From: a virus
IMG/VR virus record: IMGVR_UViG_3300027852_000031
Span: 102,380-166,379 of that record
Strand: one strand, 5' to 3'
Length of the DNA stretch: 64,000 nucleotides
The translations under genes and the position numbers were made by a program. Below, in pieces: positions 35,442 to 41,998 of this stretch. The notes beneath the pieces were generated by a model that worked only from the letters and a program-made list of their open reading frames with translations, ran no database searches and had not been told where the DNA came from. The stretch's first letter is position 1; each line of letters opens with the position of its first letter.

Positions 35442-35642
35442 CTAATTTCTTTCTAACCTACGATTCTTTAGCACTGATCGTTGTCTATATTCTGGCTTTT
35501 GTTTTGTGGAGGATGTTGTTCCTAGAGACTCTTCTATTTCTTTCATAAACCTATCGCACTCGGGACCGACGAATCCTTCACCATCGACCGAACAGTTTCC
35601 ATCATTATCTATTTCTATTATAATGTGTTTTTGTTTTGTCAT
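35442..35642 (-). CDS. DUF2997-family protein
   Basis: IIIEIDNDGNCSVDGEGFVGPEC...IEESLG...KPEY. Confidence 0.8.
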   Translation of the reverse strand: MTKQKHIIIEIDNDGNCSVDGEGFVGPECDRFMKEIEESLGTTSSTKQKPEYRQRSVLKNRRLERN

Positions 35643-35941
35643 GTATATTTCCCCAATAATTGTTGAGCGAACAGGACTTTTCCGGCCTTAACACCTTCTC
35701 TATAGGAATCTGAATGATCTGCACAATATTTTTGTATATCTGATTTAGATTGATACGATTGCTTAGATTCTTGCTCTATTATATCTATCATTTTCGATGT
35801 TTTTTGGCAGTTAAGTTGAAGCATTGTTTTTAGTTCTGCTGCTATCGCGATAGCAGTTACTTCTGGGAGAGTGTAGTCATTGGCTGTACACCAGTCTTTG
35901 ACCCTTATTAATGCTTGTTTTGTAAATTCACTATCCATCAT
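35639..35941 (-). CDS. Hypothetical protein
   Basis: Coupled ORF. Confidence 0.5.
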   Translation of the reverse strand: MMDSEFTKQALIRVKDWCTANDYTLPEVTAIAIAAELKTMLQLNCQKTSKMIDIIEQESKQSYQSKSDIQKYCADHSDSYREGVKAGKVLFAQQLLGKYT

Positions 35942-36182
35942 AATATTTACCTCCTGGAGAAAATTCTTTTATTTCAAAGTTTATAGCGGATTGCCGACTA
36001 GTATTTTGATGTAATACTTCTCCCCCTAGAGATAATACTTCCCACATCTGTTCGGTCTCATTAAACTCAACATTACTAGCCTTACGAACATCTGTTATTA
36101 AACCAACAGAGAATAAATCGATCTCATCTGTATATAGTCCAGAAAGATTACCTTGATTGTCAATGTCAAAAGTTATTTTCAT
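35931..36182 (-). CDS. Conserved hypothetical protein (recalled neighbour of DUF1257/DUF2997 genes)
   Basis: IDNQG..GLYTDEIDL...RKASNVEF...W...SRQSAINFE. Confidence 0.6.
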   Translation of the reverse strand: MKITFDIDNQGNLSGLYTDEIDLFSVGLITDVRKASNVEFNETEQMWEVLSLGGEVLHQNTSRQSAINFEIKEFSPGGKYYDG

Positions 36183-36186
36183 AATA

Positions 36187-36480
36187 TTATTCTCTAGTCA
36201 TCTTCGTATCACCACAGTGCATATTATACAGTTCGATAGCACCATCTCTTATATCCAGAATTAAATTAACAGCCAATCTTTCCGCATCTCTTCGAGCTTG
36301 TCTGATAGTTTTTCTCATTGGGCCTTCTAATTTGTAAGATGTTCCAAGATAAGCAGAACCTCTAAAATATTGACATTGACACCAATCTGGACGGCATGAG
36401 AGACAAATATCGTGCCATTCAGCTTTTGATACAGATCGAGAAAATGTATATACCCATTTTTTTGTCAGCTTGATTTTCAT
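36187..36480 (-). CDS. Hypothetical protein
   Basis: Coupled ORF. Confidence 0.5.
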   Translation of the reverse strand: MKIKLTKKWVYTFSRSVSKAEWHDICLSCRPDWCQCQYFRGSAYLGTSYKLEGPMRKTIRQARRDAERLAVNLILDIRDGAIELYNMHCGDTKMTRE

Positions 36481-39160: not shown

Positions 39161-39406
39161 TCATCTTGGAAGAATTTTAACAGGCTTAAGTGCGACAATA
39201 ACTCTTGGTGCATCCTTGCATGGGTCTAAAGATGAATTGAGACGATCAAGTTCTGCGCATACACCGCCATCTATCCTACAATTAAGAGACGTGAAGATTT
39301 TGGTATCCAATTCAATACTACCATCTTCTAGTAGATAACCAGTGGCATAAGCGGTTCTTTTTTCATAACAACTACTAAGATTAACTTTTGGTTTGCGATT
39401 ACACAT
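39161..39406 (-). CDS. Hypothetical protein
   Basis: GGAG RBS; co-oriented. Confidence 0.5.
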   Translation of the reverse strand: MCNRKPKVNLSSCYEKRTAYATGYLLEDGSIELDTKIFTSLNCRIDGGVCAELDRLNSSLDPCKDAPRVIVALKPVKILPR

Positions 39407-39424
39407 ACAATATCTCCAATAATA

Positions 39425-40435
39425 CTATAGGACAACACGCCTCTTAAGTTCGCCAATAAATTTAGACCTATTTTCTCCCTCGACCGCAGCTTGATTCCTA
39501 ATTGCTTCTAAAGACTTACTGATACTTGTCTTGATTCCTGATGGATCAAAATCTTTAGGGGTCACACCAGAATCGAGGAAAGTCGACTTAAAATCTGATA
39601 ACATCTTTTCTATCTCGTTATCTCCGAAAATATTCATTGATCTGAATTTGTCAACATACTTACGAAAACACGCGATAGATCTGGGAGTTAATTTTTTGAC
39701 ATCATCTTCATCACCATATGGTTTGCCATTAATCCTAGCTGTCATTAAATCACAAAATCTAACGACTTCATCTCTCATCGATCCTACGTATTCTCCCACA
39801 AACTTACTTACTTCGTCCTGCATTTGCTTTTTTACTTCTTGAGCCTTCTCTTCCTCGGCATGGTGTTCAGCCAAAAGCTCAGATGTACTGGTTTTTGTTA
39901 TTGATTCGATACCGGCTATTCTGAAAGTATACCAATCGAATTGGAATTTATCTCTCAACATTTTTGGGTTACTTGGATAATTTCCTTTCAGGCATTTGTC
40001 CCAAAAATCTGGATGCGATTCTCTTACCACACTCACCATGGCATCGAATCTTGCCATAAAACTGTCAACTCGTTCGAAAAATTCGTTTTTTATATCATCA
40101 ATTTGTGATTCAACAGTTGGGAGCATTGTTATTGGCACAAAGTGACTATTGGCTATTCCAAATGGGACAGACCATCGTTCTAACGCCTTTCTAGCTCTTT
40201 GTTCTATTTGATTCAATGCTTGTAGTTCGGATTTGGGTACTAATAGTTTGCGACCCAGGTTACAAATTTCATCAGGTAGTTTATCAGGATCGTACCCTAT
40301 TTTTATCATGTCTGCACGTGTCAACATCTTACGTCCGGACCATATGCCAACACGTAGATTTATTAAACAACCAACTTCAAATAGGTTAATTGTTCCATTT
40401 TCTGTGTTTTTAAAATTCATCACGCAATTCTCCAA
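39425..40435 (-). CDS. DUF3150-like protein
   Basis: INLRVGIWSGRK, LGRKLLVPK, SVPF..HFVP, helical C-terminal half. Confidence 0.7.
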   Translation of the reverse strand: MENCVMNFKNTENGTINLFEVGCLINLRVGIWSGRKMLTRADMIKIGYDPDKLPDEICNLGRKLLVPKSELQALNQIEQRARKALERWSVPFGIANSHFVPITMLPTVESQIDDIKNEFFERVDSFMARFDAMVSVVRESHPDFWDKCLKGNYPSNPKMLRDKFQFDWYTFRIAGIESITKTSTSELLAEHHAEEEKAQEVKKQMQDEVSKFVGEYVGSMRDEVVRFCDLMTARINGKPYGDEDDVKKLTPRSIACFRKYVDKFRSMNIFGDNEIEKMLSDFKSTFLDSGVTPKDFDPSGIKTSISKSLEAIRNQAAVEGENRSKFIGELKRRVVL

Positions 40436-40438
40436 AAT

Positions 40439-41998
40439 TTAGTTCATTTCTACTTTTCGTTTAATTGCTTTGAAAACATCATTGGTTTTATCTGGTTGCG
40501 CCGACTTCGCGTGTTTTTCGCACCACTGTCGGATTTCGCTTATTCTATTAGACTCTGTTTTAGAAAGAGGTATGATCTCATCGACTGCATTGATCAAATG
40601 TTTGTCGAGTAAATTTTCTCTATCGCCAAAGGCTATCTTTAGCCCAAGTCTAATTATCTGCTCTATGTCCGCACCAGTATAGCCATCAGTGACAGAAGCA
40701 AGGTGGTTGATATCGAATTTATTTGTATCTCTATTTCTTTTCGATATATGGATGGTGAATATTTCTTTTCTTTCTTCTTTGTTTGGTAAATCTAGACCAT
40801 AAATTTCGTCGAATCGACCTTTGCGACAAAACTCGGGTGGGAGTGATTGTACTTGGTTGGCCGTAGCGACGATGTATACAGGCGATGTCCTGTCATTCAG
40901 CCACTTAATAAAGGTACCAAATACTCTACGAGATGCGCCACCATCCGTATTCCCATCGCCACCGAAACCTTTTTCTATCTCGTCCAGCACCAACACGCAC
41001 GGAGCCATGCTTTCTAGCATTTTAATTGCTTCTCTCATATTGCTTTCTGACTCACCAACGTATTTGTCCATTAGATTTCCAATGTCCATAGTTATACATG
41101 GCAGACCCAGCTCAGATGAGATTGCCAGAGATAACAGTGTTTTGCCGCACCCAGGTATTCCTACTAACATAATACCTCTTGGGAATTCAATGCCGAATTC
41201 TCTAGCGTCTTCTGTAAAACAGGGTTTATCTAAGATAATATGATTTTTTAAGGCCCCATATCCTCCAACGATCCCAAGCCCACCTTTTGGTGGTTCTATG
41301 TATGACAGGATACCAGATGCTCGTATAACCGCAGCCTTCTCTGTTAAGATAGTTTGGATAGATTCCTCGGTCAAATCCTTGTGTTTGCGTAGGGCCAGAG
41401 TTACTCTGTCCACTATTTGTTGAGATGTCATGCCCCTACAAGCATTAATTATATGTTGTACATATTCCATGTTGGGCTGAAATTTTGAGCCATCCGGCAT
41501 TACCACATCGCCGCACGCGAATTCTATTCTGTCCGATATTTGGTCCTTATCTGGTAGGTCAAAATCAATTCTAGTTATATCATGGAGAAGGGATTTTGGT
41601 ACTTGCAATTCTGGACCGACGAATATGATTGTCTGCCTAACTGATGAAATAATTTTTTTCAATTCATCTAACCAACCAATTACTACATCGTAATTTGGAT
41701 AGGTCTTGTTATCTAAGTACGGTCCAAAATCCCTAAAGACACAAACTGCACCTTCGTCAAACGATATCATAGCCTGAACATGGTCTTCTACCGGAGACAT
41801 TACTGCAACATCACCTATAGACTTACCGTCTTTGTCCTTCCAACCAGTCGCTACAGACCAAATAAATAATTCTCTATCTATTTTTTTCGTAACTTCACCA
41901 ATTTCGGTTATTGCCCTGTCTTTTTCAAAAGTGTCTACCGACAATAATGCATGACCAGAACATATATAATCAGCTAGATCTTGCTGGAAATTGCGCAT
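40439..41998 (-). CDS. Ycf46-type AAA+ ATPase (degenerate N-terminal + active C-terminal AAA domain)
   Basis: GIPGCGKT, LDEIEKG, ATAN, LPPEFCRKGRFDE, YTGADIE. Confidence 0.9.
   Translation of the reverse strand: MRNFQQDLADYICSGHALLSVDTFEKDRAITEIGEVTKKIDRELFIWSVATGWKDKDGKSIGDVAVMSPVEDHVQAMISFDEGAVCVFRDFGPYLDNKTYPNYDVVIGWLDELKKIISSVRQTIIFVGPELQVPKSLLHDITRIDFDLPDKDQISDRIEFACGDVVMPDGSKFQPNMEYVQHIINACRGMTSQQIVDRVTLALRKHKDLTEESIQTILTEKAAVIRASGILSYIEPPKGGLGIVGGYGALKNHIILDKPCFTEDAREFGIEFPRGIMLVGIPGCGKTLLSLAISSELGLPCITMDIGNLMDKYVGESESNMREAIKMLESMAPCVLVLDEIEKGFGGDGNTDGGASRRVFGTFIKWLNDRTSPVYIVATANQVQSLPPEFCRKGRFDEIYGLDLPNKEERKEIFTIHISKRNRDTNKFDINHLASVTDGYTGADIEQIIRLGLKIAFGDRENLLDKHLINAVDEIIPLSKTESNRISEIRQWCEKHAKSAQPDKTNDVFKAIKRKVEMN

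Follow-up and report, generated by a model that had tools for sequence, protein, structure and literature searches.

A five-gene AAA module next to a Ubl cassette

We analyzed the final 64 kb (hereafter the window) of the 166,379-bp IMG/VR virus record IMGVR_UViG_3300027852_000031, rated complete by CheckV, and focused on a module of five genes encoding an AAA ATPase, proteins of the DUF3150, DUF1257, and DUF2997 families, and an 83-aa protein (g83). This module neighbors a cassette encoding a ubiquitin-like protein (Ubl), an E2, a JAB protein, and an E1. Across viruses and Planctomycetota genomes the two gene sets co-occur far above chance, and the link between them is real but optional. Genes in the window were called with Pfam and PHROG scans, with scores compared to gathering cut-offs, and DUF1257, DUF2997, DUF3150, and g83 were traced in viral loci with iterated hidden Markov models (HMMs) made from the window's proteins. 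All five module genes named in an earlier sequence-only reading were recovered where it had placed them, all on the minus strand (Pfam, PHROG, and iterated HMMs), and the E1 gene lies 2.9 kb upstream of the ATPase start, consistent with the spacing of about 3 kb given in that reading:

44898-48097, minus strand: Ubl - E2 (with CxxC tail) - JAB - E1 cassette, upstream of the module; the ThiF E1 is at 44898-45584 (5.1e-24)
40439-42013, minus strand: AAA ATPase (PF00004, 6.7e-30; phrog_8638, 3.1e-121 over the full length)
39425-40435, minus strand: DUF3150 (PF11348, 3.4e-22; 79.4 bits against a cut-off of 24.9; match to positions 5-183 of the 257 in the profile)
38039-38452, minus strand: DUF1257 (Ycf35 family), core partner (PF06868, 3.4e-9; 37.3 bits against a cut-off of 22.2)
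35931-36182, minus strand: g83 (83-aa family), fifth module member (family found in 35 related loci by iterated HMM)
35442-35642, minus strand: DUF2997, core partner found in every case together with DUF1257 (PF11211, 4.2e-10; 39.8 bits against a cut-off of 24.1)

Translation of the ATPase from a TTG start yields 524 aa, and from an ATG at 41998 yields 519 aa, i.e., the length of a database copy (P0001). The order AAA, DUF3150, DUF1257, 83-aa gene, DUF2997, and a 64-aa gene is kept in seven related viral contigs whose ATPases are 60-69% identical to that of the window. Between 25 and 50 kb, almost every substantial open reading frame (ORF) is encoded on the minus strand, with tight packing, and GC content across the region is ~38%. 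No match was obtained from a megablast of this region against GenBank phages, nor from a tblastn of DUF1257 against phages.

Linkage of module and cassette in viruses and on integrative islands

The JAMM motif of the cassette's JAB protein (HTHPGDSPEPSWTD) is intact, and the Ubl has a conserved C-terminal K-[IV]-[ED]-G, followed by 1-10 further residues. A scan of viral sequences with the JAB profile gave 15 loci, 14 of which have the AAA module no more than 10 kb away. The same profile matched 16 of 401 Planctomycetota genomes, often with 2-5 copies per genome, which yielded 20 places with 10-kb flanks, 17 of them scorable, i.e., with enough flank. The cassette sat directly against the module in 14 of these 17 island loci, seven of which display the full co-directional order DUF1257-DUF2997-AAA-DUF3150-g83-Ubl-E2-JAB-E1, and five measured clusters span 7.5-8.9 kb. 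Four to five island loci have, a few kb from E1, members of a tyrosine integrase family and of a small excisionase-like helix-turn-helix (HTH) family, with one member each confirmed by Pfam; this recurrence, along with the multiple copies per genome, identifies the islands as integrative mobile elements.

At the genome level, the DUF3150 profile matched 25 of the 401 Planctomycetota genomes, and the two profiles were strongly associated (both, 11 genomes; JAB only, 3; DUF3150 only, 14; neither, 373; odds ratio 98, Fisher p = 1.6e-12). Co-occurrence had been set beforehand as the refuting test for the sequence-only reading, which saw module and cassette as one extended system, and the two proved to co-occur above chance (14/15 viral loci, 14/17 island loci, and the Fisher test). 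That proposal is thus partly supported: the linkage is far above chance and involves two distant clades of the ATPase, but it is not obligatory, as both sets are also found on their own. When the JAB alignment was used to search bacterial genomes by pattern, an approach that the later profile search showed to be far too narrow, one Phycisphaerae contig was returned, with the cassette and without the module.

Island loci also carry a family of 71-118-aa ORFs without Pfam match, located directly upstream of Ubl in 12 of them (among L187-L205; e.g., L195:12054-12269). An HMM search found no counterpart in the phage clade, and this family may represent a tenth component.

Two diverged versions of the module

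We next evaluated the relationships between Ubl-linked modules through a tree of 113 ATPases. Those linked to Ubl form two clades, one from phages (17 rows, Shimodaira-Hasegawa-like approximate likelihood ratio test (SH-aLRT) 100) and one from islands (15 rows, SH-aLRT 100). The island clade also includes six viral rows without a cassette within 10 kb; whole records were searched for five of these rows, among them two complete 200-kb phages, and none contains ThiF. Closest to the island clade are a viral group and a Manganitrophus plasmid (L108), both without Ubl, and the nearest relatives of the phage clade likewise lack the cassette. In an E1 tree, phage and island cassettes form separate supported clades, with stand-alone cassettes branching outside both.

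The two versions of the module are highly divergent: between the window and the islands, ATPases share 27-30% identity and DUF3150 proteins 17-19%, and DUF1257 similarity is not significant, whereas JAB (38-43%) and E2 (28-31%) show the same similarity as when remote phage-clade members are compared to each other, and E1 reaches 42-46%. GC content is 39% in the window vs 53-63% in the islands. Branch supports and this contrast in identity are most simply read as a single type of cassette having become attached, either on two or more occasions or through transfer, to two anciently diverged versions of the module.

The module beyond the Ubl-linked clades

The module itself is much more broadly distributed. 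Full-length homologs of the ATPase, at ~29% identity, were detected in cultured Mycobacterium, Rhizobium, Pseudomonas, and Rhodobacter phages. Three of these groups encode the ATPase followed by a 200-320-aa ORF, a gene in the DUF1257 position, and DUF2997, in a set located between lysis and replication genes; DUF1257 was identified by Pfam in the Rhizobium and Pseudomonas phages, and by iterated HMM in the Rhodobacter phage. A profile-based viral scan added 80 loci, and the iterated HMMs detected DUF1257 in 49 loci, DUF2997 in 49, DUF3150 in 35, and g83 in 35. Overall, AAA, DUF1257, DUF2997, DUF3150, and g83 remain together, in four or more different orders, in ~50 viral loci, the islands, and the Manganitrophus plasmid, where AAA-DUF1257-DUF2997-DUF3150-g83 stand in a row. 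Because this linkage outlasts rearrangement across such distances, the five genes constitute one functional unit.

We then used DUF1257 as a marker of the module in 301 Planctomycetota genomes, and detected it in 30 (~10%). The AAA-DUF1257-DUF2997 trio was present in 15 of the 17 strongest of these loci, and DUF2997 adjoins DUF1257 in most loci. The core of the module is thus AAA, DUF1257, and DUF2997, with DUF3150 and g83 as additions in mobile elements. Hsp70-like genes were the sole recurrent neighbor in a Pfam tally of 90 neighboring genes and 60 matched families (4 ORFs, in three Planctomycetota loci).

These Hsp70-like genes lie immediately upstream of either AAA-DUF1257-DUF2997 or the DUF1257-DUF2997 pair (L152, L155, and L156); in L155, two large Hsp70-like genes precede DUF1257-DUF2997, with no AAA seen on this short contig. 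Separately, a single 193-aa ORF in one locus (L086:9353-9934) matches both the DUF1257 and DUF2997 HMMs and has a fusion-like length, and, if real, this fusion would argue for joint action of both proteins. A 4.9-Mb contig labeled as a Heimdallarchaeota metagenome-assembled genome encodes an ATPase (P0069) with 57-65% identity to that of the window, which could be explained by a prophage, by chimeric assembly, or by a genuine archaeal gene copy.

Cooperation or joint transport

We consider it somewhat probable, based on these sequence comparisons, that the module and the Ubl cassette cooperate in one pathway. This reading is favored over coincidence because co-occurrence is far above chance and involves two deeply separated module lineages. 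The main alternative is that both are independent cargo modules travelling together, with the AAA module performing a job unrelated to Ubl, and several observations weigh in that direction. In the viral sample collected from the ATPase, E1, JAB, and E2 were found within 10 kb only in the window's clade. ThiF was detected in 10 of 50 whole records, eight of which belong to that same clade; among records at least 90% complete, it was present in 3 of the 14 that carry the ATPase, once at 60 kb from it, and absent from the other 11, and none was detected in four cultured phages carrying the ATPase. Module and cassette are also doubly dissociated in complete genomes: one 143-kb genome (G011, ATPase identity 56%) contains the module without ThiF or JAB, and a 44.6-kb phage (G052) contains Ubl-E2-JAB-E1 without the ATPase.

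Similarly, 14 of the 25 Planctomycetota genomes with DUF3150 lack the cassette. No cassette was seen near the 17 Planctomycetota DUF1257 loci, and neither ThiF nor JAB was among the 25 commonest of the 60 Pfam families matched by the 90 neighbors of the Planctomycetota trios. Within the phage clade, module and cassette are separated by 2-9 kb of unrelated, variable genes, and promoter and terminator scans were at chance level and uninformative. Finally, no more than two independent associations are documented, and both occur in cargo regions of mobile elements, with the integrase and excisionase-like HTH genes close by in the islands.

Joint transport would thus account for the lack of E1 in most module copies and for the variable spacing in phages. 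However, it does not readily explain the tight co-directional adjacency in 14 of 17 island loci, the attachment of the cassette, with differing gene orders, to two module versions that are deeply diverged, or the strength of the genome-level association (Fisher p = 1.6e-12), and we regard it as possible but somewhat unlikely. A ThiF match 23 kb from the ATPase in another viral record (G026:C1:43566-44210, the record of L046) is broken by one TGA and two TAA codons, and may be a decayed E1 gene.

The ATPase and its relationship to Cdc48/p97

The ATPase belongs to the classic AAA clade, with a Walker A (GIPGCGKT), a Walker B (VLDEIEK), a pore loop (KYVG), a sensor 1, and the arginine fingers of the second region of homology (ATAN...RKGRFDE), and these catalytic motifs are invariant across the family alignment (A10). 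Its AAA domain occupies the C-terminal half of the protein, and the N-terminal 268 residues are family-specific. In Cdc48/p97 the N-terminal position is taken by a cofactor-binding double-psi barrel; a profile of the N-domain studied here gave no PDB sequence match at E <= 0.01, and an atlas search returned unnamed ATPase fragments only. When compared to the protein's own AAA domain with hhalign, it displayed a weak match (E 2e-4, probability 46%) over 192 collinear columns, which begins past the Walker A position and includes no P-loop equivalent. Hence, the N-domain may be a degenerate D1-like AAA module.

The sequence-only reading had proposed a Cdc48/p97-like unfoldase. This was supported as far as the AAA domain is concerned, as the best PDB sequence matches are p97/Cdc48 D2 domains (2e-57) and the pore loop is present, but does not extend to family membership: the protein scored 115.4 bits against the TIGR01243 CDC48 model, for a cut-off of 802.65, and a single Pfam AAA domain was found (residues 281-408) rather than tandem D1 and D2 domains. 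By these sequence measures, the ATPase is not a member of the Cdc48/p97 family. As for the Ycf46 label also given to it, its sole support is "SpoVK/Ycf46/Vps4 family", a COG-level source name attached to a 48%-identical relative.

From the sequence, we infer that the ATPase might act as a segregase on Ubl-tagged substrates. A strict version of this proposal, which is a special case of cooperation rather than an addition to it, would have the N-domain or the cofactors recognize Ubl and the ATPase extract tagged proteins in the manner of Cdc48/p97. The proximity of the AAA domain to p97 D2, the possible D1-like origin of the N-domain, and the module-cassette linkage are all consistent with such a mechanism. 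However, considering the single AAA domain and low CDC48 score, an N-domain without PDB sequence relative, and the presence of the same ATPase family without any Ubl in most genomes, we find this strict form distinctly unlikely.

A C-terminal tail shared by the ATPase and DUF3150

In the window, the ATPase ends with the basic-hydrophobic sequence KRKVEMN and DUF3150 with KRRVVL, i.e., the same type of motif. The general pattern shared by both families is basic-Arg-[Lys/Arg]-[Val/Ile/Leu]-x-[Leu/Ile/Val], and many ATPases end with G-R-x-L-D-[L/I/F]. A strict version of the motif was found in 27 of 90 ATPases and 6 of 35 DUF3150 proteins, and in 19 of 8073 other ORFs. Of these 19, 16 are on the same strand and within 6 kb of an ATPase gene, including 11 which encode proteins of 229-318 aa at most 3 kb downstream of the ATPase, most of them directly after it, in loci without a recognized DUF3150. 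Tails also co-vary within genomes: for 12 clade representatives, the mean score of same-genome pairs was 12.4, vs 8.9 for pairs across clades (permutation p = 0.002), and in the islands both the ATPase and DUF3150 tails are of the R-R-R-x-I-x-R form. Since AAA-DUF1257-DUF2997 trios retain the tail, its receptor probably lies in DUF1257-DUF2997 or in the ATPase itself.

Partner proteins and further alternatives

DUF3150 consists of an alpha/beta part at the N-terminus followed by an extended helical bundle; its AF2 model is confident (predicted local distance difference test (pLDDT) 80.7), but Foldseek and VIA searches returned generic helical-bundle matches only and no informative fold. Archetypal DUF3150 proteins are encoded on 835 plasmids, most of them conjugative; on an IncC plasmid (L109), the neighbors of DUF3150 are ssb-bet-exo and genes for a CobT-like VWA protein and a CbbQ-type AAA+ ATPase. 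With these neighbors, an assignment of DUF3150 to PRTRC, a ParB/ThiF plasmid cassette, was rejected. For g83, which is present in the Manganitrophus plasmid and in the islands, the family alignment (A8) includes a conserved R-A-S-x-V-E motif, and the N-terminal hairpin resembles that of DUF2997 (hhalign, 86% over 18 columns).

In the same IncC plasmid (pEC8-1/2a), both DUF3150 and the 302-aa neighbor of the CbbQ-type ATPase (L109:4172-5080 and L109:8028-9305) include an acidic stretch followed by a Y/H-F-F ending. This tail is reminiscent of SSB C-termini and unlike the basic tail of the phage module.

DUF1257 was modeled with confidence as a small two-layer alpha/beta domain (AF2, pLDDT 89.1) with generic small alpha/beta matches from Foldseek and VIA, the best VIA match being to a KA1 domain (Z 5.4), and the DUF1257 and DUF2997 profiles had no PDB sequence relatives. 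Its N-terminus is Met-Ser-His in nearly all copies from phages, plasmid, and Planctomycetota, and Met-Ser-Arg, Met-Ser-Met, or Met-Ser-Leu in the window's clade (Met-Ser-Arg in the window itself). HslU and proteasomal ATPases have C-terminal docking tails, of which the tails described here are reminiscent, and one might therefore picture an ATP-dependent protease-like machine in which ATPase tails would dock on DUF1257-DUF2997, with the nearly invariant N-terminal serine of DUF1257 as a catalytic residue. We view this as very unlikely given the small two-layer fold and the replacement of the histidine in the window's own clade; Pfam and PHROG scans of the module proteins found no peptidase family, and no protease or Ntn-hydrolase was among the matches of the DUF1257 fold search, although this does not exclude a protease.

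A role in DNA replication or recombination, with tails binding a DNA-associated hub such as a sliding clamp, appears similarly improbable. In its favor, cultured siphophages have the module immediately ahead of their DnaB and DNA polymerase genes, the IncC-plasmid DUF3150 sits beside ssb-bet-exo, and tails such as GRQLDF presumably bear a loose likeness to clamp-binding peptides, which we take as a lead only. Against it, a classic-clade AAA with a pore loop is indicative of protein substrates, three Planctomycetota loci have Hsp70-like genes next to the module or the DUF1257-DUF2997 pair, and none of the module proteins was found to contain a DNA-binding domain.

Proposed mechanism and relation to known systems

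Cooperation between module and cassette remains our preferred reading, and could proceed as follows. The five genes would form a self-sufficient AAA+ protein-remodeling module, in which a ring of the ATPase would thread polypeptides through its KYVG pore loop, with DUF1257-DUF2997 as its obligate cofactor pair. DUF3150, as a putative partner, would dock at the same receptor site as the ATPase's own C-terminal tail. The Ubl-E2-JAB-E1 cassette would have been joined as an optional arm in the phage clade and, independently, on Planctomycetota integrative islands, and where it is present, Ubl tagging may supply or regulate the clients of the motor. In its most elaborate form, this would amount to a prokaryotic, phage-borne counterpart of ubiquitin-unfoldase pathways, in which Ubl marks proteins for the AAA motor, a peptide copied from the tail addresses partners and clients, the core corresponds to the Ycf46/Ycf35 machinery of cyanobacteria and plastids, and DUF1257 is possibly a new peptidase; taken as a whole, we deem this unlikely.

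The coupling of Ubl tagging to AAA unfoldases is a hallmark of eukaryotes, archaea, and actinobacteria, and tag-coupled unfoldases include Cdc48/p97/VAT with ubiquitin- or SAMP-directed cofactors and Mpa-Pup in actinobacteria. As in these systems, the module described here genetically couples a classic-clade AAA, with an AAA domain nearest p97 D2, to small-protein tagging. Unlike Cdc48/p97, it includes one active-type AAA domain along with a family-specific N-domain, scores far below the CDC48 cut-off, and is accompanied by DUF1257, DUF2997, DUF3150, and g83 rather than Ufd1-Npl4 or UBX proteins. Its coupling to tagging is also optional, and no peptidase partner of the ATPase, of the kind present in tag-unfoldase-protease (proteasome-type) pathways, was found in the module.

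Bacterial E1-E2-JAB-Ubl operons have been described as type II Bil, CBASS Cap2/Cap3, and Bub systems (PMC10097602, PMC11601603, PMC11601596). The cassette studied here comprises the same four enzyme classes, with a Ubl that likewise needs C-terminal trimming, but is found in phages and on integrative islands, where it is linked to a motor module of five genes. Two of these papers (PMC11601603, PMC11601596) name no AAA ATPase or unfoldase partner, and a recurrent, optional junction of Ubl cassette and module would provide bacterial E1-E2-JAB systems with a missing downstream arm. PADLOC identified no known defense system: the ATPase matched only the IetA and TRIP13 AAA-domain models, i.e., a generic AAA domain, and none of nine other module and neighboring small proteins scanned was matched.

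DUF2997 and ycf35 cluster with the ferredoxin gene fed7 in cyanobacteria (PMC4284462), and in red-algal plastids ycf35 and ycf46 follow the same marine-vs-freshwater retention pattern, being kept or lost together (PMC5940233). The module shares the DUF1257 and DUF2997 families with this cluster, which in contrast has a ferredoxin partner and no DUF3150, g83, or Ubl cassette. Finally, the IncC MoxR/CbbQ-type AAA+ system resembles the module in that DUF3150 is encoded on a mobile element near an AAA+ ATPase, but differs by its AAA_5 plus CbbQ_C ATPase, its CobT-like VWA, and its acidic tail ending in Y/H-F-F. No function is known for DUF1257/Ycf35, DUF2997, or DUF3150, which are widespread families (phages, plasmids, Planctomycetota, cyanobacteria, and plastids); the literature on these families is sparse, and the parts of it covered here do not describe the module. 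A junction with Ubl would provide an experimental handle on all three, and the presence of the core module in cultured Pseudomonas, Rhizobium, and Rhodobacter phages makes it genetically tractable.

Insertions and neighboring genes

Several other genes interrupt or flank the module in the window:

42046-43635, minus strand: g72, g70, g241, and g137 (small, clade-specific), upstream of the ATPase
39161-39406, minus strand: g81, a small ORF whose phage-clade relatives are 140-232 aa, outside the wider module
38453-39115, minus strand: HNH homing endonuclease, between DUF3150 and DUF1257 (phrog_374, 4.5e-65)
36480-37853, minus strand: IMPDH/GMP-reductase-like gene (PF00478, 6.6e-81)
35232-35426, minus strand: g64, downstream of DUF2997, phage clade only (51-79% identity, six relatives)

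The sequence-only reading had considered the HNH and IMPDH-like genes as insertions, and comparison to relatives bears this out, since both are missing or located elsewhere. None of the seven related contigs, L007 and L008 among them, has an HNH gene at this position; in L007, the five module genes are contiguous (9971-13866) and the IMPDH-like gene is placed after DUF2997, and in L005 the DUF1257-g83-DUF2997 stretch does not include it. Upstream of the ATPase, g72, g70, and g137 remain with the module in a relative that lacks Ubl (L017).

Over its first 120 residues, the IMPDH-like protein is similar to the N- and C-terminal parts of the HNH protein, with the nuclease core missing (BLASTP, 39-40% identity, 1e-13 and 2e-11), and at the sequence level this gene looks as if a homing-endonuclease remnant had been fused to a metabolic gene. 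Further out, a 140-aa ORF (44014-44436) and a 122-aa ORF (34225-34593) both match the same gene in related loci (44-46% identity), and are thus paralogs located ~10 kb apart and flanking the module.

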